A DNA stretch of 64,000 bases, taken from an uncultured bacterium. Lineage in GTDB: Bacteria; Babelota; Babeliae; Babelales; Babelaceae. Both the position numbers and the translations under genes were made by a program. Location of the stretch: assembly GCA_963848965.1 (NCBI GenBank), contig CAWKFG010000004.1, forward strand, positions 192,001 to 256,000. Reading direction: 5' to 3'. The notes beneath the pieces were generated by a model that saw only the letters and a program-made list of their open reading frames with translations, was not told the DNA's origin and did not search any database. Positions 11,479 to 62,199 of this stretch are shown piece after piece; position 1 is the first letter of the stretch, and each line of letters begins with the position of its first letter.

Positions 11479-12093
11479 TTATCTATCTGTTTTAGGCTCA
11501 GGAGCACAAACACAGCGAGAATCTTCTAACTCTTTTACCTCTTCCATAGTTTGAGGAACAAGATTGTCTTGTGTCTTCTTCACCCAACTGTCATAAAAAG
11601 ATTGTAGTTGCTTATAGAGCATTCCTATTCTTTCTAATTCTTGTGTATTTTGAGTTCGTAGGTCCACAGATGGCAATATAATCTTAGTAAAACACTCATC
11701 AACTTTGAATAATTGTAGAGTATCCAATATACCCCTTTGAAAAGCATTCCAACATTTAAATAGTGTTTGCCCATCAGCTAAATCATCTACAAAAGTATTA
11801 TAAAGTATACCTTCTGCATAAAATCGTAGACTCAGCTCTTTCTCCCATAGATCATGCCAAGCTCGTGAATCTTTAACCAATAGAGAAAGCTTAGCTAGTA
11901 CATCACAATAGTTAGTGCCAAAGCGTTGTCCTTTTTTGTAATATTCTTCTGCACTAAGAGGACAATCCTCTTTATAATTTTCTGCAACATACATGCGCAT
12001 CTTTTGCTTTTCTTTTTCCATACCATATGAGAAAGCAGGCACTAGTATAAGACTAAGAGCACATAATTTTTTTGCTAAATACATATTTTTCAT
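11479..12093 (-). CDS. Secreted hypothetical protein
   Basis: Signal peptide ending SYG|ME; no recognised domain. Confidence 0.7.
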   Translation of the reverse strand: MKNMYLAKKLCALSLILVPAFSYGMEKEKQKMRMYVAENYKEDCPLSAEEYYKKGQRFGTNYCDVLAKLSLLVKDSRAWHDLWEKELSLRFYAEGILYNTFVDDLADGQTLFKCWNAFQRGILDTLQLFKVDECFTKIILPSVDLRTQNTQELERIGMLYKQLQSFYDSWVKKTQDNLVPQTMEEVKELEDSRCVCAPEPKTDR

Positions 12094-12874: not shown

Positions 12875-13285
12875 ATGTCAATCAAATACTATTTTATTGC
12901 CGTTTTTCTTCTTGGTACCTCATTAGCTCAAGCAATGGATGTTACACAACCGCAAGGTCAAAGTACTTTAACAGAAGCTCAAAAAGCACTTTTTATGTTC
13001 CGCGCTCGTGGCTTAATGTTTGTAAAAGCTGCTCAAGAAAATAAAACTGCCGTAGTTAATGCTCTTTTACCAACCATTGGTACCCTTATTAATACGAAGG
13101 ATCAAGCTGGCAAAAGTGCTCTTCATCATGCAGTAGGCAATCAAAATAGAGAAATGGTACAAGCTTTAGTAAGAGCTCAAGCTGATATTACTCTCGCAGA
13201 TAATGCAGGGCAAACACCTTTAGACCTTGCAAGAGAAACAAATAACACAGAAATTATAGCTCTTTTATCTCCAAAGCAAAAATAA
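12875..13285 (+). CDS. Secreted ankyrin-repeat protein
   Basis: Signal peptide AQA|MD; GKSALHHAV and GQTPLDLA repeats. Confidence 0.88.
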   Translation: MSIKYYFIAVFLLGTSLAQAMDVTQPQGQSTLTEAQKALFMFRARGLMFVKAAQENKTAVVNALLPTIGTLINTKDQAGKSALHHAVGNQNREMVQALVRAQADITLADNAGQTPLDLARETNNTEIIALLSPKQK

Positions 13286-13998: not shown

Positions 13999-15180
13999 TT
14001 ATACGTTGGTTAATTCTTCTTTTAGATCCTGCGGAAGTACTTTCTCTGCTTTTGTACTAAAAGTCTGATTATTTTTGCGTATATAGGCTAGAGTAATTTC
14101 CTTAAGTGTTGCCACTTGTATCTTCTTTTTATCTTTAAGTCTGGTCAGCCATAAATACTTAGGCTCTGGACCACCTCTGGTATCAACGGGTTCTCCTTTA
14201 CCTAATACCTCGAGCCATTTTCCTCCTTGGCTAATAGCCTTAAGAGCAACTAAGGGAAGATTTGTCGATATGCTCAAGAGCTTAGCCTGATCACCATCAT
14301 CAATTGAATCATCATTTACCATGAGATTAAGAATTGAACGTATATAGGGAGTATTTTCAATACAAAGTTTGCTTAGTTGAGGTGCCATAACCGCTTTTTC
14401 TGGCACTTTTACAAGTGGGTTATTATCTAGATCTACATATTGTAATGTAGGATATTCCGAAGGCATACTGTCAGAAATATCAGTAAGCCGATTATTACTA
14501 AGCGTAAGTGAGGTAAGTCTTGTATTATACTTTAAAGCATCAGCAGAAAGTCCTTTGAGATAGTTATCACTCACGTCTAATATCTCTAATAGAGGACAAT
14601 AATAAAAAATAGTCGCAGGAAGCTCTTGAAGGTAATTATGATTCAATCGAAGAGATTTAAGTTTTTTACACAATACAAAAAGATTTCCAGAAAGCTTTGT
14701 AAGCATATTACTTGAAATCCATAAGTATTCTAATATGCTCTTGTCTGAAAAAGTATCTTCAGCAAGTAAATTTATCTTATTAGAACCAAGATCAAGGCCA
14801 GATAATCGTGAGAAACATTCCAAATCTTTCTTTTTTAAAGATGTAAGAGCATTTTCTGAGAGCCTTACGGAATCAATAGTGCTTACATTAGAATGAGAAG
14901 CTGATATAAATTCTTTTAAATGCTCAAGCGAGGCTATATTTAAACCCTGAAGATAAAGACTTTTCTTATCATAACTGAAAAGTTGACCATTACTGAGTCT
15001 ATGTGCAAATTCCACCTTCGTTCTTAACTTCAAAAGATCAAGGACCCCAACAGTTGCTTTTTCTTTTTTAGAATGTACAATCTGCTGGCCATGCCGAGCC
15101 GATTCCTTCTTTTCTTGCTCCATACCCTGCATATACATAAAAAGACTTATACTTGCTAAAGTTAAAAATAGTTTTTTCAT
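13999..15180 (-). CDS. Secreted leucine-rich-repeat protein with C-terminal BC/Cul-box-like module
   Basis: Probable start ATG 15180 (MKKLFLTLASISLFMYMQG|ME); about eight LxxLxLxxNxL repeats; tail TLKEITLAYI...LPQDLKEEL. Confidence 0.88.
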   Translation of the reverse strand: MKKLFLTLASISLFMYMQGMEQEKKESARHGQQIVHSKKEKATVGVLDLLKLRTKVEFAHRLSNGQLFSYDKKSLYLQGLNIASLEHLKEFISASHSNVSTIDSVRLSENALTSLKKKDLECFSRLSGLDLGSNKINLLAEDTFSDKSILEYLWISSNMLTKLSGNLFVLCKKLKSLRLNHNYLQELPATIFYYCPLLEILDVSDNYLKGLSADALKYNTRLTSLTLSNNRLTDISDSMPSEYPTLQYVDLDNNPLVKVPEKAVMAPQLSKLCIENTPYIRSILNLMVNDDSIDDGDQAKLLSISTNLPLVALKAISQGGKWLEVLGKGEPVDTRGGPEPKYLWLTRLKDKKKIQVATLKEITLAYIRKNNQTFSTKAEKVLPQDLKEELTNV

Positions 15181-15196
15181 AGTGAGCCCATTCAAT

Positions 15197-15225
15197 AAAA
15201 AAGCGGTACTAGAAAGTACCGCTTT
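15197..15225 (-). terminator. Intrinsic terminator
   Basis: AAAGCGGTACT/AGTACCGCTTT hairpin with U tract on the minus strand after 15233..15976. Confidence 0.7.
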
Positions 15226-15232
15226 AAATGTG

Positions 15233-15976
15233 TTAGAGACAAAACGCAAATGCGTATGACGGTTGCTTAAATCTCTTATATTCTGCTTCTTTTTCAAGAG
15301 CATTGTGCTGCACTAAAAATTCTTTTGCAAAATCATTTTTCATGTTGCGTGCCTCATTATAAGCAAAATAAAGGTAGAGATCTCGCGGTGTACATTCAGG
15401 CCGATCTTCTGAAGCAATACCAGGTGATGAACTTGCTACCTCTTCTAACTCAAGTGACAATGCGGTATGTTTAAAAAGCTCAACGATTTTTAAATGCTTT
15501 TTCAACTGAATACGCGTATCATCTCTATCCTGTACCAACTCTAATTCTTCAACTTTAGAAGAAATGAGGGTTCGGATAAGTTCCATAACAGCTCTTTTTT
15601 CAGAAAGTTTTAAATTATTATTTTTAAAAAGAACAAGAAAAGCCAATTCAACAAGATCTTTTACAGGATGACTGTAAATTATGCTGTGAGTTAGATCAAG
15701 GTTAAGATAAGTCACTAGTCGCTTATTAACTTCTTGTTGCAGCTCTTGTGGCAAGAGTGAAAGGAAAGTCGCTTTATACATAGCATCTTGTGGTAGTTGT
15801 TTTAAGCGTTTAAGCGCGTTATTATATACTTCTTCAGAATTTACCGGATTACTTCGCTTTACCGGTGGAAGCAGGGACCTCTTAGGTTGCTCCTCATGAT
15901 TCATTGCACGTATAGTTGAGATGCTCAATAATAGCACGCTTACGAGTGCCGTTACTTTATATGATGTCATATACAA
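15233..15976 (-). CDS. Secreted hypothetical protein with F-box-like segment
   Basis: Signal peptide IRA|MN; FLSLLPQELQQEV. Confidence 0.7.
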   Translation of the reverse strand: MYMTSYKVTALVSVLLLSISTIRAMNHEEQPKRSLLPPVKRSNPVNSEEVYNNALKRLKQLPQDAMYKATFLSLLPQELQQEVNKRLVTYLNLDLTHSIIYSHPVKDLVELAFLVLFKNNNLKLSEKRAVMELIRTLISSKVEELELVQDRDDTRIQLKKHLKIVELFKHTALSLELEEVASSSPGIASEDRPECTPRDLYLYFAYNEARNMKNDFAKEFLVQHNALEKEAEYKRFKQPSYAFAFCL

Positions 15977-22833: not shown

Positions 22834-23406
22834 ATGATCTCTTTAAACCAATGTTTAAGCCTATTTATAGTAACGTGTAGTTTCTTCCTATTACAGGGTA
22901 TAGCTCCGTACCCTTCTCATCCGTCTCCGGATACGTCTGCCCAGATTAAAAGCCTTAGCGACAATCCCATTAGACTCAGTGGTGTAGAATGTAAAGTTAA
23001 CATCGAAGATCATAGACCAGAATCATATACTGATAGTAAGATACCTAAATTTACTAATTACTTTACTCCTAAAGTTAGTTTAAACTGTTCAGGAAGCACA
23101 TATATACGTAAGGCAATTTTATTCCCTATAGATTGGGAACATTACATCAAACAAAATAGCGACTCTTTACCAGAAGCATTCAAGGAATATGCACTAGAAG
23201 AGAGACCAGAAATTCCTTTTAATGCAGTACCTTACACATCTAAGATATATCCTGGCAAAAGTTATCTTGCTCAAACTGAGGTTAGATCACTTAAAGAACA
23301 AGCCATAGACTACATTAAAAGGTATAAAGGGCAATATTTTACCATAAAGCAGTTGGAAGCTCTTGAAACTCTGCCTCAAGAACTTAAAGAAAAAATTAAC
23401 TTGTAG
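22834..23406 (+). CDS. Secreted protein with C-terminal BC/Cul-box-like module
   Basis: Signal peptide; tail SLKEQAIDYI...LPQELKEKI. Confidence 0.78.
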   Translation: MISLNQCLSLFIVTCSFFLLQGIAPYPSHPSPDTSAQIKSLSDNPIRLSGVECKVNIEDHRPESYTDSKIPKFTNYFTPKVSLNCSGSTYIRKAILFPIDWEHYIKQNSDSLPEAFKEYALEERPEIPFNAVPYTSKIYPGKSYLAQTEVRSLKEQAIDYIKRYKGQYFTIKQLEALETLPQELKEKINL

Positions 23407-27106: not shown

Positions 27107-27763
27107 TCAGCTATCAAGCAATTTCTCGCTTTTCTGTAAGATTACACTATAAAAAGTTCTATGTGAACCGTAGCTTAACTTTTTCGCCCACGTTGATGGA
27201 TACTCTCTCAAATCATTGTACGTTAACGATTTAACATTCATAACGCTAAAACCAAGATTTTCAAGTTTTGGGATCATGGAATTTTGTAGGCATGCTTCAT
27301 TTAAGATAGGTAAATTAAGACGCTCAATCTCTTTTTTATCATGCTCTGGGTCATAACCAAAAATAACATGAACCAAAGCTTCAGTCTTACAAATTTTCTT
27401 AATGTTATTCCAAGTAAGCTCATGCGCTAAAACTATACCTTGAAGCAAAGTACCCCAAGGGAAGTTAATATAAACCTTATCGGCACTACCATTCAGCTCT
27501 CTAGGTAAGGTTTCAACAGAAGATAAGACGTATAGAACGTTAGCTAAACCACCCTTTGAGAGTTTTTTTAAAGCCTTAGCTGAAATCTCAACTAAGTTTT
27601 CGTGACAGGGATCAATACCAATAACCAGTGACTGCGGGTTTTCTTTAGCCATATGGTAAGCAAAAGAACCGTCACCGGTACCAATATCGACGATAACCAA
27701 AGGTCAATGTCATTGGTCGCTTCGATCTATTTCTACTAACTTTTTACCCTGAATAACTTTCAT
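27107..27763 (-). pseudogene. 16S rRNA (adenine-1408-N1)-methyltransferase, NpmA/KamB family; two in-frame TGA near the 5' end
   Basis: DIGTGDG, GIDP, NFPWGTLL, STWAKKL motifs; ATG 27763 gives MKVIQGKKLVEIDRSDQ*H*PLVIVDIG; remainder open from TTG 27700. Confidence 0.85.
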
Positions 27764-35294: not shown

Positions 35295-36740
35295 CTAATC
35301 ATAATTTTGCGGATGCATAGTATGCCATGGTGTCGCCTGTTCGTAGGCATAGGCAGCTTGATATAACTGACCTTCTGACAAATCTGGCCCCACTAACTGG
35401 AACCCTATAGGAAGCATACTTTTAGTAAACCCACATGGAACACTTAATGCAGGAATACCTGCTAAATTAATAGGACCTGTAAAATAATCCTGAAGATCCA
35501 TCTCTATACTATTACCTTCATAGGCGCCAAACTTAAATGCTGGTATAGGAGCTCCTGGCATAAACAGCAGATCTACCTCTTTAAATGCTCTCATAAACTC
35601 ATCACGTATAAGACCTTGAACAATCTTAGCACTATTATAAAATTGATCTGCATGCCCTACTGATAATACATAATTACCAATTAAAATACGTGACTTTACT
35701 TCTAAACCAAATCCTTCATAACGAGTATTTGTATACATCTGGTTTAGTGTCTTACTCTCTTTACTTCTAAGGCCATAACGTACTCCGTCAAATCGTGCAA
35801 GATTAGATGCTGCTTCTGCACGACTCACCATAAAATAGGCAGCAGTTCCATGGTCCATCATAGGTAAAGTAAGACGTTTAATACGAGCACCTAATTTTTC
35901 AAAAGTACGTAGTGCTTCATTCAAACCAGTATACACTTCTTCATCAAATCCTTGAGCTTCAAGAGCATTATCTATAACTCCTAACGTAAACCCTTCTTTT
36001 AACTTTCCTGTTAAATACTTTGTATAATCTTGTGATACAACCTGTAGGCAACTTGAATCTCGATCATCTTTTCCAGCAATAAAAGACAGAATAAGTGCAT
36101 TATCATAGACATTACGTGTCAGCGGTCCTATCTGATCTAAAGAAGAAGCATATGCTATAAGACCATAACGAGAAACACGACCATATGTTGGTTTTAATCC
36201 TACAATTCCACAAAATGTCGCTGGTTGTCGTATAGATCCTCCCGTATCTGAACCTAATGCCCAAGGTACTAACCCTGCTGCTACAGCAGCTGCAGAACCA
36301 CTACTCGATCCTCCCGGAACTCTACTTGTATCCCACGGGTTTTTTGTAAGTTGAAATGCAGAAGCCTCAGAAGAGCTGCCCATACCAAACTCATCCATAT
36401 TTGCTCTTCCAATGAGCGGTGCTCCAGAGGCTTTAAGCCTTTTTATTGTAGTAGCATCATACGGTGCATTATAGTTTTCTAAAATCTTTGATGCACATGA
36501 GGTAACGCGTCCTTGCTGACATATGTTATCTTTTATAAGCCCTGGAATACCACGTAATGGTCCATCACCTGTTTTTTCCATAATAGATGATTGATCAAAA
36601 ATTTCTAAAGCAGATCCTAAAGTTGTATCATACTTTTTAAACCGCTCACCATAATAGGCGATAAGCTCTTGTGAAGTTATTTCTTTATCTTCAATTTTTT
36701 TTTGCAATGTTTTTATTGAAGCAAATGCTAGTTCTTTCAT
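35295..36740 (-). CDS. gatA: Asp/Glu-tRNA amidotransferase subunit A, copy 2
   Basis: [35 protein letters not shown]. Confidence 0.95.
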
Positions 36741-36761
36741 GCAAACCTTACTCGTAACATT

Positions 36762-38207
36762 TTATTTGTAATTTTGTGGATGCATAGTATGCCATGGTGT
36801 TGCCTGTTCATAGGCATATGCCGCTTGAAACAACTGACCTTCTGATAAATCTGGTCCCATAAGCTGGAAACCTATAGGAAGCATACTTTTAGTAAATCCA
36901 CAAGGAACACTTAATGCAGGAGTTCCCGTTAAGTTGCTTGGAGAAGTAAAATAGTCCTGAAGATCCATCTCTATACTCTCGAGCCCAATTTCTCCAAATT
37001 TAAATGCGGCAATAGGGGTAACCGGACCAAATAAAAGATCAACTTCTTTAAACGCTTTATTAAGCTCATCTCGCATAAGACCTTGTACAATCTTAGCACT
37101 ATTATAAAATTGATCTGCATGTCCTACTGATAACGCATAATTACCGATTAAGATACGCGATTTTACTAAAAATCCAAATCCTTCACCTCGAGTGTTTGTA
37201 TACATTTCGTTAAGAGTCTCACTCTTTTTACTTCTATGCCCATAACGAACTCCGTCAAATCGTGCAAGATTAGACGCAGCTTCTGCACGACTTACAAGAA
37301 AGTATGTTGCAGCACCATGGTCCATCATAGGTAAGGTAAGACGCTTAATACGAGCACCTAGTTTTTCAAAGGTACGTAATGCTTCATTCAAAGCAGCATA
37401 CACCTCTTCATTAAACCCTTGAGCTTCAAGAGCATTATCTATAACTCCTAACGTAAATCCTTCTTTTAACTTTCCTGTTAAATGCTTTGTATAATCTTGT
37501 GGCTCAACAGGTAAACTACTTGAATCATGCACGTCTTTTCCTGCCATTACTGAAAGAATAAGTGCATTATCATAAACTTCACGTGTAAGCACTCCTATTT
37601 GATCTAAAGAAGAAGCATATGCTATAAGACCATAACGAGAGACAAGTCCATATGTTGGCTTTAGTCCTACAATTCCGCAAAATGCAGCCGGTTGTCGTAC
37701 TGAACCTCCTGTTTCTGTGCCTAATGCCCAGGGCACTAGTCCGGCAGCTACAGCAGCTGCAGAGCCACTACTTGATCCTCCTGGAACTCTACTTGTGTCC
37801 CACGGGTTTTTTGTAAGTTGAAATGCAGACGTTTCACCAGAGCTGCCCATAGCAAATTCGTCCATATTTGCTCTTCCAAGAATCGGAGCTCCTGCTTTTT
37901 TAAGCCTTTGTATAACAGTAGCATCATAAGGTGCATTATAACGTTCTAAAATCTTTGATGCACAAGATGCATTACGTCCCTGCTGACAGATATTATCTTT
38001 TATAAGCCCTGGAATACCATTGAGTGTTCCTGGTTGCATACGCTCTGTAATTGATTCAAGATCAAAAATCTGTAAGGCTGCATCGAGGTTTTTATTATGC
38101 TGCAGAAAGCGCTCTCTATAAAAAGAGAGTAACTCAGCTGGTTGTATCTCTTTACTTTCTACTTTTTTTTGTAACGTTCTTATTGAAGCAAATGAAAGTT
38201 CGTTCAT
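36762..38207 (-). CDS. gatA: Asp/Glu-tRNA amidotransferase subunit A, copy 1
   Basis: [35 protein letters not shown]; overlaps gatC stop. Confidence 0.95.
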   Translation of the reverse strand: MNELSFASIRTLQKKVESKEIQPAELLSFYRERFLQHNKNLDAALQIFDLESITERMQPGTLNGIPGLIKDNICQQGRNASCASKILERYNAPYDATVIQRLKKAGAPILGRANMDEFAMGSSGETSAFQLTKNPWDTSRVPGGSSSGSAAAVAAGLVPWALGTETGGSVRQPAAFCGIVGLKPTYGLVSRYGLIAYASSLDQIGVLTREVYDNALILSVMAGKDVHDSSSLPVEPQDYTKHLTGKLKEGFTLGVIDNALEAQGFNEEVYAALNEALRTFEKLGARIKRLTLPMMDHGAATYFLVSRAEAASNLARFDGVRYGHRSKKSETLNEMYTNTRGEGFGFLVKSRILIGNYALSVGHADQFYNSAKIVQGLMRDELNKAFKEVDLLFGPVTPIAAFKFGEIGLESIEMDLQDYFTSPSNLTGTPALSVPCGFTKSMLPIGFQLMGPDLSEGQLFQAAYAYEQATPWHTMHPQNYK

Positions 38208-46012: not shown

Positions 46013-46038
46013 AAAAGAGGACCTTAAGGTCCTCTTTT
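46013..46038. terminator. Bidirectional intrinsic terminator
   Basis: AAAAGAGGACC/GGTCCTCTTTT hairpin. Confidence 0.78.
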
Positions 46039-47357
46039 TACATAATAGTTGGCAAGGTAAATTTAAAGGGAGCTTTTTTTGGATACAGTATAGAAACTAT
46101 CTCACGAATACTTAATCTATCAACAATAGAATAGAGATCCCATATTGATATAACACCATTATTAGCAGTGCTCAACATATACCGTCCATCTGGGCTAAAG
46201 CATAACGAAGAAATACCATCGTAATGAACATTATAATCTTTAAGTTCAATCAAATCATTCTTTATCTTCCTTGCTATAAACACAGTATTGTGTAAAGAAC
46301 TTGCCGCTATATAGTTATTTTGTGGATGAAGTGCAATACAGGAAACAGGTGGCCAAATTATACCGTAACCGCAATAAGATACAGCTCCATACTCATTATC
46401 TTTGGTAGCATAGACCTTTATCGCCCCGTTTTTATAACCTACTATAGCTTCTCTACCTCCCGGGGTAAAGTTCACAGCAGTGATAGCTCTTTGACTGCTC
46501 TTTGCAAGCAAATGAGTAGCTACAAAATTCCCTCTCCAATTTATAAGTACTCCTGCATACTGATGGTAAAGTTCGTTACGGCCACTATCATATCCTACAA
46601 GCAGTTGTTTACTTTGAGTGTGAAATACTGCGCAAGTGAGGTAAATATTCCTATGTTGCGGAAAAAATCCTAGCAAATTACTTGTATTTGTACATTGCCA
46701 GGTAGTGGGTGACCATGTGCGCATAGTAAAATCTTTAGAAAAAGAAAAAAATCGAGTAATTCCTGATGAGTTATATTCAAATGCCACAGCTATAACAGAT
46801 TGTGTATGTCCTCGTAAAACTGCAAGACATTTATTTTCGCTTATATCCCACACAGCAATAGTTGCGTCCTTAGAACCTGTAAGAGCATATTTACCATCTC
46901 TGCTAATAGTCAAACAGGTAATTGGTCCTTTGTGTGCTTGCAATGTTTGCGCTTGCATAGTACTTTTGTTAAGGACATATACATTACCATCCTCCGCTCC
47001 TAAAACAATAAAATGTCCATTGGGCGTAAATGACGAACAAGTAAAGGTAGTTACATAAGTAAGGCCCGGTAGAGTAACTTGCGCTAAAGTTGGCATATGT
47101 GATGAGCCTTTAAAAAGAGCGTGATAATAGTTCTTAAAAAAATAGTTACGAAGGTTGTTTTGCACACCTGCATCCAAAGCCTCTAAACTTTTTAACAACA
47201 ATTCTTGTTTCTTAAACGATGCTTGTTTCAATAATGTATCAATGGTAGAGCATGACGACTGTACTAAAGACTTTACATGCGACTGTGGGTCCATTGCTTT
47301 AAGACCAAAGAGAGGCATGAACACTAATAGGGTTATAAAAATATTTTTAAACATCAT
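46038..47357 (-). CDS. Secreted WD40-repeat protein
   Basis: Signal peptide LKA|MD; AHKGPIT...TGSKDATIAVWD, GHTQSV, FSPDG...SIWD repeats. Confidence 0.9.
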   Translation of the reverse strand: MMFKNIFITLLVFMPLFGLKAMDPQSHVKSLVQSSCSTIDTLLKQASFKKQELLLKSLEALDAGVQNNLRNYFFKNYYHALFKGSSHMPTLAQVTLPGLTYVTTFTCSSFTPNGHFIVLGAEDGNVYVLNKSTMQAQTLQAHKGPITCLTISRDGKYALTGSKDATIAVWDISENKCLAVLRGHTQSVIAVAFEYNSSGITRFFSFSKDFTMRTWSPTTWQCTNTSNLLGFFPQHRNIYLTCAVFHTQSKQLLVGYDSGRNELYHQYAGVLINWRGNFVATHLLAKSSQRAITAVNFTPGGREAIVGYKNGAIKVYATKDNEYGAVSYCGYGIIWPPVSCIALHPQNNYIAASSLHNTVFIARKIKNDLIELKDYNVHYDGISSLCFSPDGRYMLSTANNGVISIWDLYSIVDRLSIREIVSILYPKKAPFKFTLPTIM

Positions 47358-50337: not shown

Positions 50338-50703
50338 TTATAAATGAGTTTTTTGATTAATCATTAAAAGCAAGATAGTAAGAAGTTCCTTAGGCAAAAC
50401 TTTAAGGTAGCTATCTTCTTGAATAGGTCCAAAATAAGGCACTGCACCTATGCTTAATAGAGATGTAGTAGGATTTACATTTGTGCTTTCTACTGCCATT
50501 TTAAGAAATTCATCTTTAAGATCTTGTGGAAGTATCCGGACTTGCTCTTTAAGCTCAGACCAGTTTTTCTTTATATAGCATATTACAAGCTCTTTTAAAG
50601 AAGTTATACGAGGCTTATGCAGATACGCAGGACCCGCCATCATAATAGGAACAAAAAATAAGCTTATTGCAAGCATTTTAAATATTTTATTGAACATTAA
50701 CAT
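50338..50703 (-). CDS. Small secreted protein with BC/Cul-box-like and F-box-like segments
   Basis: Signal peptide from ATG 50703/50697; SLKELVICYI...LPQDLKDEF and YLKVLPKELL. Confidence 0.7.
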   Translation of the reverse strand: MLMFNKIFKMLAISLFFVPIMMAGPAYLHKPRITSLKELVICYIKKNWSELKEQVRILPQDLKDEFLKMAVESTNVNPTTSLLSIGAVPYFGPIQEDSYLKVLPKELLTILLLMINQKTHL

Positions 50704-50710
50704 CCTTACG

Positions 50711-50869
50711 TTATTTAGAAGGTAATTCATCTTTAAGCTCTTGAGGAAGTACTTGGTATGCTTGTTCTTTAAACTGAGACCAATTCTGCCTGACATAGCA
50801 CAGTCCGTTAGCAACAACGATTGAAGAAGAAAGAAGAGCCATTATATATGGTATAACTTTATATGACAT
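50711..50869 (-). CDS. 52-aa mini-protein: signal peptide plus partial BC/Cul-box-like module
   Basis: Not in ORF track; MSYKVIPYIMALLSSSIVVANGLCYVRQNWSQFKEQAYQVLPQELKDELPSK*, homologous to the module in 50338..50703. Confidence 0.7.
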   Translation of the reverse strand: MSYKVIPYIMALLSSSIVVANGLCYVRQNWSQFKEQAYQVLPQELKDELPSK

Positions 50870-50997: not shown

Positions 50998-52921
<1,924 letters not shown>

Positions 52922-60622: not shown

Positions 60623-60834
60623 AACTCCAATAAGCGTATATCGACATGCTTTGTTTTATGATGAAAAAAGAAGATGCAAAATGTCAAGAAAACAAGCCCT
60701 CATTCTTACTCAATGCACTAGAGTAGTTCACAATGCTTTTTTATCTCTTGAGCTTAAGCTGTTGAGAAAAATGTAAATAAAGGTACCTTAATAAAGAGTT
60801 CAATTGAATCTTTGTAAATTAAGGCAGACTACCT

Positions 60835-62148
60835 ATGAATAGTATTAAGAAAATGTTACTTATTTTAGTAACTTTAGCATGTGCAGTTCCGCTAGGAGCA
60901 TTACCTATACGCAGCTTAAAAAATGTAGGCAATAGTTGTTTTATAAATGCCACAATTCAATGTCTTTCCCACATTGATAGCATGGCACTCTCTATACTTT
61001 TTGAAAAAGATGATTACTACAAGAAAAAATCGCTTGCAGCTCGTTATCGAAAACTTCTTAAGGAATTAAATAGTGAACAAGCGAGTGATAATAAAGTAAA
61101 GAAGCAGCTCAAAAAATTCTGTTCACAAAGTTGGGAAACTCTCGGTGTAAGAAAATATAGCCAACAGGATGCTGCAGAGCTTATTGATACTCTTTTTAAT
61201 CATATAACTGACTACGATATACAAGATACAGTTAAAGATACGTTGCCTTTCTACCCAGGCACTTATCAACCACAAACAATGCTGTCGAATCTCTTTTTCT
61301 CATGCGTTCATTCAATTCTTACGCCATTAGGACTCTTTGCACTTCCTTCTGTAAAAACAGAGCCTGTTAGTATGTTAACTATCCCATTTACACCTAAAGC
61401 TCTTACGTTAGAAGACTGCTTATCTGCTTATTTTATGCCAACAAAGCTTACAGGAAACGAAAAAATAACATACTTACCAGGCATTCGTGTAGATGCTCTG
61501 AAACGGCTTGCACTTAAGCATACTTCAGAATATCTTATTATACGACTTAATAGAAATAAGTTTACTGTTGAACATGATAGAAAGAACAACAAAGTATTTG
61601 TATCTACTAAGCTTTCTGAACCTGTAAGTTTTCCACTTACTCATCTTGATGTATCGCCATATTTTGATCTTGGATGTAAGCAAGAAGGCTATAAATATAA
61701 TCTTATATCATTTATTGTTCATGTTGGAAGCAGTGCATCATCAGGGCACTACACTGCTTATGTAAAAAATGAGGATGGATGGCATTATTGCGATGATAGA
61801 TCTATCATTAAAATAACAAATAAACAAATAGAGGACATTGCAAAGCGCGGATACGCCATTGACCCTCTACATTTGTTATTTCCAGAAAGTCAGCCACAAG
61901 AGAATATCAAAACAAGTAAACGACAAACGCCTGTTCTGTTTTTCTATGAAAAAGAGCCACGAGCGACTGATGAGTCAAAAGTTCCAGAGATAGCTTCACA
62001 TGAAGAAGTACTCAAGATAGCAAAAGATAAAGAGAACTCTCCCTCTATCATCCAAGAGACAGAGAAAAAAGTCTCAACAGAAATTCAGAGAAATACTCGT
62101 GATGTAGATTTGTTCACTTCTGATGAAGACTGTATAATACTCAATTAA
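60835..62148 (+). CDS. Secreted ubiquitin-specific protease (USP/peptidase C19)
   Basis: Cys box LKNVGNSCFINATIQCL, QQDAAE, LxRxxF, His box HVGSSASSGHYTAYVK...WHYCDD; signal peptide. Confidence 0.92.
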   Translation: MNSIKKMLLILVTLACAVPLGALPIRSLKNVGNSCFINATIQCLSHIDSMALSILFEKDDYYKKKSLAARYRKLLKELNSEQASDNKVKKQLKKFCSQSWETLGVRKYSQQDAAELIDTLFNHITDYDIQDTVKDTLPFYPGTYQPQTMLSNLFFSCVHSILTPLGLFALPSVKTEPVSMLTIPFTPKALTLEDCLSAYFMPTKLTGNEKITYLPGIRVDALKRLALKHTSEYLIIRLNRNKFTVEHDRKNNKVFVSTKLSEPVSFPLTHLDVSPYFDLGCKQEGYKYNLISFIVHVGSSASSGHYTAYVKNEDGWHYCDDRSIIKITNKQIEDIAKRGYAIDPLHLLFPESQPQENIKTSKRQTPVLFFYEKEPRATDESKVPEIASHEEVLKIAKDKENSPSIIQETEKKVSTEIQRNTRDVDLFTSDEDCIILN

Positions 62149-62169: not shown

Positions 62170-62199
62170 AAAAAGGTGTAGCATAAGCTACACCTTTTT
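62170..62199. terminator. Bidirectional intrinsic terminator
   Basis: AAAAAGGTGTAGC/GCTACACCTTTTT hairpin. Confidence 0.8.

Follow-up and report, generated by a model that had tools for sequence, protein, structure and literature searches.

The described proteins closest in kind to the one analysed here come from Babela massiliensis, for which Pagnier 2015 (PMC4378268) reported three secreted C19 ubiquitin C-terminal hydrolases together with one F-box and one RING protein; the supplement of that paper also counts such genes in Amoebophilus, Protochlamydia and Cardinium. According to a 2026 review, the characterised bacterial USPs are TssM and SnUSP1-3 only, and its passages on the subject leave Babela, TM6 and Dependentiae unmentioned. 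The relevant passages in the main text of the report on the Simkania enzymes (Boll 2023, PMC10643670) contain no mention of 'signal peptide', Babela or TM6, and neither C19 nor peptidase was found in the corresponding main-text passages of Yeoh 2015. A phylum survey, tree or assay of Babelota USPs was not found in the literature, subscription papers and bioRxiv supplements lying outside the search. Because secreted C19 hydrolases were reported in B. massiliensis, the protein described below (P0001) is a further member of a described kind, and the single gene is unsurprising given the 2015 annotations in Babela. New here are the phylum-wide scale and the independence of the USP family, a spread that was not found in print.

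The USP gene, its active site and its predicted fold

The gene lies in the window (the whole 64,000-nucleotide stretch that was analysed), within an 873-kb contig of a genome of 1.73 Mb, 37% GC and 88.7% completeness. Proteins of this genome were 85.6% (187 aa), 77.7% (94 aa) and 68.5% (498 aa) identical to the flanks of Dependentiae/Babeliales loci, and at most 53% identical to flanks from Chlamydiae, Verrucomicrobia, Holosporaceae and Bacteroidota groups, the latter figures resting on different genes than those for Babeliales. No 16S motifs were found in the assembly. The best-scoring USP relatives with a titled record likewise belong to Babeliales/Dependentiae. By these protein matches, the enzyme is most likely encoded by a Babelota/Dependentiae genome. 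The reading frame encodes 437 aa with neither an internal stop nor an intron, and its GC content (0.350) and GC3 (0.244) both differ by less than one standard deviation from those of the genome (means 0.376 and 0.261). It is a single gene, flanked by a lipase/esterase gene that diverges from it and a hypothetical gene that converges on it. The following features were assigned.

60821..60824, + strand: AAGG, a possible ribosome-binding site 10 nt upstream of the ATG, by sequence reading
60835..62148, + strand: USP/C19 deubiquitinase-type protease gene (P0001), 437 aa, by ORF calling and profile matches
60835..60900, + strand: predicted Sec signal peptide, residues 1-22, cut at A22|L23, by hydropathy rule and cleavage matrix
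60901..61956, + strand: USP catalytic domain, residues 23-374, thumb-palm-fingers, zinc-finger CxxC pairs absent, by predicted model and alignment
60922..60948, + strand: Cys box N30-N38, which contains the oxyanion residue Asn30 and the catalytic Cys35 (codon 60937-60939), by alignment
61162..61179, + strand: QQD box Q110-E115, with E115 at the probable site of the glutamate that binds ubiquitin Arg72, by alignment
61747..61752, + strand: catalytic His305 and aromatic gatekeeper Tyr306, by alignment
61792..61797, + strand: Asp320 as the third critical residue and Asp321 as the fourth, by alignment
61957..62145, + strand: acidic C-terminal tail, residues 375-437, of low confidence and little conserved, by pLDDT and alignment
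62170..62199, no strand assigned: 13-bp hairpin flanked on both sides by A and T runs, between converging genes, by folding energy

The hairpin has a folding energy of -18.7 kcal/mol (z -7.8), and none of 200 shuffled sequences was equally stable. It is absent from the list given by a consensus scan; it is likely a two-way terminator. Elsewhere in the window, methionyl-tRNA synthetase appears as two ORFs of 176 and 313 aa (51317-52921, - strand), two 481-aa amidase (GatA-like) genes stand in tandem (35295-38207, - strand), and an NpmA-like 16S rRNA A1408 methyltransferase, of a family linked to aminoglycoside resistance, was found at 27107-27700 (- strand; E 4.5e-60).

The first-pass annotation had called the product a USP of eukaryotic type, with complete Cys, QQD and His boxes and intact Cys/His/Asp candidates, and this assignment was confirmed. 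The Pfam UCH profile (PF00443) matched residues 28-339 with 127 bits (E 1.2e-36; cut-off 23.9). Among solved structures, 68 sequences matched, and every one among the matches listed was a USP, the top one being USP15 (E 8e-18), with USP8 and USP2 among the further top matches of the sequence search. The boxes are in register with those of USP15 (N30-x-G-N-S-C35-F-I-N38, Q110-Q-D-A-A-E115, G304-H305-Y306 and W316-x-x-C-D320-D321), and C35, D112, H305, W316 and D321 were invariant across 30 aligned relatives. Following the names that PMC10867860 gives to the third and the fourth of the critical USP residues, the third catalytic residue is better assigned to D320, with D321 as the fourth. A conserved USP glutamate binds ubiquitin Arg72 (PMC10719079), and an aromatic gatekeeper role has been described in USPs (10.1101/2020.07.01.182683).

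The AlphaFold model has a mean pLDDT of 86, with block means of 34-63 from residue 381 onward in the tail. Foldseek returned USPs only, among the matches listed, and the model could be aligned to USP2 over 307 residues (VIA-align; Z 32.5, rmsd 2.6), including the predicted finger strands at residues 156-229. The fingers are without CxxC pairs, as they are in 78 of 132 relatives. Sequence identity to solved USPs is 19-28%, and two positions depart from the family pattern: Asn241 stands where 67 of 132 family domains have Phe, and Val367 where the alignment consensus is Tyr. By analogy with USP7, both sites may line the pocket for ubiquitin Leu71/Leu73. The protein is a USP of eukaryotic type with a complete active site, and it is probably functional.

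Leader, secretion machinery and exported companions

An N-terminal leader was recognised by a rule of our own, distinct from SignalP, that requires an uncharged 9-residue core with a hydropathy of at least 2 and a net positive charge before the core. The N-terminus of the protein has two lysines and a core at residues 8-16 with a mean hydropathy of 3.06, and the leader is its sole strongly hydrophobic 19-residue stretch. A cleavage matrix, for which 200 leaders from the same genome served as the training set, scored A22|L23 at 9.3 bits, compared with 4.2 bits for the next site, and predicted the same cleavage site in P0002, which is 71% identical. These heuristic results bear out the Sec signal peptide that had been proposed from the sequence. 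Among relatives, the USP domain begins at most 10 residues from the predicted cut in 64 of the 96 scored, and 104 of 127 USP ORFs of phylum genomes, read from the first ATG, passed the leader rule. The 127 were taken from 32 loci and 80 regions, which cover the better-scoring part of about 200 matches; duplicates had been merged, and three further ORFs had been excluded for their open 5′ ends. The controls passed rarely (internal methionines, 4/627; window enzymes, 2/19; viral USPs, 0/68). A point against the export reading is that the rule also passes 520 of the 1177 genome ORFs of at least 150 aa (44%, membrane proteins included). For Chromulinavorax, signals on 44% of the proteins have been published.

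Profile searches of the genome revealed type II secretion parts, namely three secretins, a T2SSC-like protein, a PilM/T2SSL-like protein and two T2SSE ATPase genes. A type II-like cluster with three secretin genes was observed at L246:3388-15000 (G000:C4:763-775 kb), where Yeoh 2015 had described two copies in seven genomes. No FHIPEP or VirB4-type matches, taken as markers of type III and type IV systems, were found, which is weak evidence because the genome is 88.7% complete. Type II was described as the only secretion system in Babela (Pagnier 2015, PMC4378268), and it was reported as core across the phylum (Yeoh 2015); the profile matches of the present genome fit these reports.

It had further been proposed that the window encodes ubiquitin writers beside the protease, and here the annotation was not upheld: none of the 53 window proteins scanned with Pfam matched an F-box, SOCS, BTB or RING domain, a rescan of 10 proteins or parts at E up to 1 gave no E3 domains, and Atlas look-ups of two window proteins returned scores below 0.9 only. 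The box-like motifs of the window were recognised by eye or with a self-built profile only. Genome-wide Pfam searches for F-box-like, OTU and C48 domains found none; the absence of F-box-like and OTU domains from the genome is not thereby demonstrated, because these two profiles were silent in the controls too. RING domains were matched eight times, four of them over the cut-off. The seven ORFs concerned each carry an export-like leader and lie outside the window; they include G000:C4:581219-585445, C1:455399-456961, C1:572282-574387 and C4:340295-341092. Across the phylum, RING matches occur in 160 of 261 genomes (73 of the 90 with a USP and 87 of the 171 without), in counts to which related genomes contribute non-independently. 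A write-and-erase set is plausible for the genome; for the window, candidate writers rest on the resemblance of the box-like motifs.

Several shared motifs were observed in proteins of the genome. A Y-L-x-L-L-P-Q-[ED]-L-like motif occurs in about 15 ORFs, mostly right after the leader, in G000:C1:538552-609806 and a few other places. It resembles a divergent F-box, the Pfam F-box-like profile gave no match to it, and window ORF 15233-15976 is similar by eye. Another motif is shared by window ORFs 13999-15303, 22834-23406 and 50338-50817 and by G000:C1:384160-384711; its profile was seeded on two members, with support from neither Pfam nor Atlas, and it is called BC/SOCS-box-like here by resemblance. 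At residues 13-32, Ala/Gly/Ser followed by Met-Glu/Gln/Asp/Asn was found in 157 of 655 leader-bearing ORFs, compared with 9 of 1224 in a control window; examples are window ORFs 46038-47357, 13999-15303, 12875-13285, 11479-12093 and 15233-15976. Many exported proteins would thus begin with a fresh Met after cleavage, a start similar to the NatB type of eukaryotic cytosolic N-terminus. The mature USP would begin Leu-Pro. A literature search on a fresh Met behind bacterial signal peptides returned no relevant title.

Spread and descent of the Babelota USPs

Bacterial USPs had been described in the first-pass annotation as only sporadic, which does not hold for this phylum, where USPs were described for Babela massiliensis in 2015 and are often present in several copies. 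Of 261 phylum genomes, 90 carry a PF00443 match above the cut-off, as do 63 of the 189 good ones; such matches were found in 50 of 145 genera and in none of 14 controls. They occur in 29 of 40 genomes of the family to which the present genome belongs, 28 of 35 of another and 9 of 80 of a third, with none in ten families. Matches number about 200 in total (150 listed and 52 more), with up to nine per genome and two in the present one. The second USP of the genome (L002:1441-2763; G000:C1:503140-504462, - strand) is 29% identical to the first, carries a leader and about 110 extra residues ahead of the domain, and lies near ORFs that are integrase-like and recombinase-like by eye.

From the phylum, 137 USP domains were cut out, of which 132 are near full length; Cys, His and Asn/Asp are retained in 121 of the latter. 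Of the remaining domains, five have Cys and His with Ser or Glu as the third residue, and one is without His. Five extra domains of tandem USP proteins are without both Cys and His. Fusions of USPs with ankyrin or pentapeptide repeats were observed as well, and tandem USP polyproteins of up to 3751 aa and five domains are encoded at L107:7931-19183, L124:1395-3935, L141:3482-6040, L092:1914-5510 and L098:2922-6554. USP-like ORFs (L041-L082, P0020, P0126 and P0137) were also observed in records of Parachlamydiaceae, other Chlamydiae, Cardinium, Amoebophilaceae, Holosporaceae, Rickettsiales, Puniceicoccales, Oligoflexales and Christensenellaceae; the chlamydial ones shown are without a leader by their N-terminus, and several from other groups have one. 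Among metagenome contigs, DNA of a close relative was not found, the best matches being 24-33% identical. A 128-aa ORF with a partial ubiquitin-like match whose end is not Gly-Gly was observed at L033:1381-1767 (- strand).

Phylogeny against eukaryotic and giant-virus USPs, which had been suggested as a check, placed the protein among Babelota enzymes. In a FastTree phylogeny of 271 rows it fell inside a pure Babelota group (support 86), with the Babelota label needing 25 changes over the tree and some eukaryotic and other bacterial rows scattered among Babelota. A quick mixture-model tree of 72 rows put all 34 Babelota rows outside the eukaryote-plus-virus side (83 and 93 SH-aLRT, unstarred). 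A careful tree was then restricted to 40 selected rows, with most long rows excluded. It joined the protein to P0003 at 99/97, within a five-row Babelota group that includes the paralog at 96/92, and it placed the viruses in one clade (100/98) within a eukaryotic USP8/15-like group (96/90). The split between bacteria and eukaryotes had weak support (75/89), with one Babelota row across it, and long-branch pull may shape it. All trees were unrooted. Where their eukaryotic rows carry a name, it is that of an animal, a fungus, a plant or, once, an alga; no protist is among the names, and several rows are unnamed.

The AU test rejected a grouping of the five-row group with five viral rows (p 5e-05; the group was picked after the tree had been seen), and a giant-virus origin was rejected on this result. 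Because the protein groups with Babelota and the viral grouping is rejected, it is an old resident and not a recent viral gift. One Babelota clade was recovered in 0 of 200 bootstrap trees of the 40 rows and was not rejected by the AU test (p 0.28), nor was one bacterial clade (p 0.55); a single origin of Babelota USPs is neither established nor rejected by these trees and tests.

Candidate function and comparison with described systems

The family, the motifs, the predicted fold, the leader, the phylum spread, the type II parts and the absence of the type III/IV markers tested are direct observations; each step of transport and catalysis is one that we infer. The protein is a C19 protease with a complete active site which, after predicted Sec and likely type II export, likely strips ubiquitin from the bacterial compartment and from the bacterium's own exported proteins in a protist host. 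Signal peptidase would cut after Ala22 and release a nearly bare catalytic domain into the periplasm, where it would fold before leaving through a secretin channel in the outer membrane. Ubiquitin of the host would then lie in the cleft between fingers and palm, with Glu115 gripping Arg72 and Tyr306 admitting Gly-Gly only, and Cys35, His305 and Asp320-321 would cut the isopeptide bond in the manner of papain, presumably with little linkage preference, as in Simkania SnUSP1/2. The outcome would be that ubiquitin-driven clearance is delayed and exported bacterial proteins are kept stable. Weak points of this mechanism are Asn241 and Val367, the nearly inactive SnUSP3 precedent, and the vacuole membrane in Babela. 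The exported effector that had been proposed thus retains its leader, its intact residues and a plausible host-directed role, with its companion writers in the window no more than box-like candidates.

Once exported, the enzyme might instead leave chains in general alone: its target could be ubiquitin-like, such as NEDD8, SUMO or a modifier specific to protists, or it could be one particular ubiquitinated host protein. The USP fold offers precedents in the USP18-ISG15 and USP36-Fubi structures, USPL1 and SnUSP3, and Asn241 and Val367 are off the family norm in a protein so distant from solved USPs; however, the retained Glu115 and Tyr306 fit a substrate with Arg72 and Gly-Gly, and Ub-PA reacted with 3 of 3 Simkania USPs (PMC10643670), so that we regard a substrate of this kind as unlikely. 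Since Babela grows in a vacuole (PMC4378268), ubiquitin in the cytosol might lie beyond the reach of type II export alone. The enzyme could then stop short of the host cytosol, in the periplasm, at the surface (possibly through a lipid anchor on Cys16) or in the vacuole lumen, and free ubiquitinated host material for digestion and uptake by bacteria that, as published for the phylum (Yeoh 2015 among the sources), rely on host nutrients. Cys16 does follow the hydrophobic core in both P0001 and P0002, yet the next relatives (P0003, P0140, P0141 and P0156) are without it, the top predicted cut is A22|L23, and the same leader is found on ankyrin and RING proteins, whose partners must be cytosolic; confinement outside the cytosol is therefore considered very unlikely.

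It is highly improbable that the enzyme serves to process ubiquitin-like proteins or fusions made by the bacterium itself. One partial ubiquitin-like ORF is present in the genome and PF00240 matches occur in 23 of 261 phylum genomes, but the ORF does not end in Gly-Gly and 81 of the 90 USP genomes are without a PF00240 match, and bacterial ubiquitin was accordingly rejected as a general USP substrate; as only nine USP genomes have such a match, the substrate is probably not bacterial. When the sequence is searched by itself, its nearest matches that are not Babelota-like are 22-28% identical and either virus-like or eukaryotic. A contaminant contig might give such matches, and so might a gene recently acquired from a eukaryote or a giant virus and now decaying. 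That explanation is scarcely credible: contamination was rejected on the evidence of the 873-kb contig, on which the gene lies amid bacterial genes with genome-like GC and GC3, and the uninterrupted frame, the Babelota grouping at 96/92 and the rejected virus grouping (p 5e-05) stand against a recent transfer.

A broader scenario can be offered tentatively, and taken as a whole it is more doubtful than probable. No known bacterial deubiquitinase family would be larger than the Babelota USPs, which would form an ancient bacterial branch of their own. It would stem from one uptake, with an early eukaryote as donor, that preceded the radiation of the order; a Sec leader was then added and the zinc finger often lost, tandem polyproteins with dead spare domains arose, and members came to be shared with chlamydiae and other symbionts. 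Together with exported RING proteins and box-like adaptors, they would make up a full write-and-erase kit that is delivered without type III or IV secretion. The phylum adds about 200 USP matches, and many of these are compact domains that should express easily. They would allow tests of protist ubiquitin defences, of a Sec/type II cargo route to the host cytosol, and of the evolution of a eukaryotic family inside bacteria.

Compared with eukaryotic USPs, of which USP2, USP8, USP15, USP21 and USP12/46 are its best sequence or fold matches and have the same catalytic layout, the protein differs in its identity of at most 28%, its lack of finger CxxC pairs, its signal peptide and its position, which is not nested among the sampled eukaryotic rows. 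The giant-virus USPs (IMG/VR loci) are likewise compact, single-domain enzymes in parasites of protists, but they are without a leader in 68 of 68 cases and form their own clade (100/98) in the eukaryotic USP8/15-like part of the tree. Burkholderia TssM, which the first-pass annotation had chosen for comparison, is a bacterial USP-family enzyme that was reported to be type II-secreted (PMC10719079). It proved a poor match, since TssM has an Ig-fold domain and lacks the entire Fingers subdomain, whereas the model of the present enzyme has full fingers; a TssM-type architecture was rejected on the predicted finger strands, which align with USP2. SnUSP1-3 of Simkania negevensis (Chlamydiae) share a conventional USP domain, a full active site and an aromatic gatekeeper, and they too come from a bacterium that infects protists (Boll 2023, PMC10643670). 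Two of the three are active and linkage-promiscuous, and SnUSP3 keeps all motifs and hardly cleaves chains. By their description, these are large proteins with hydrophobic regions, in contrast to the nearly bare domain of the mature protein analysed here. Closest are the Babela C19 hydrolases, which agree in phylum (most likely), family and predicted signal peptide and are encoded alongside F-box and RING proteins and type II secretion. They belong to another organism, are described at annotation level only (PMC4378268), and fall outside the sequences sampled in the present trees. In one of them, BAB00636.1 (459 aa; SignalP 3 of 3), the leader stands directly ahead of the Cys box, as it does in P0001.
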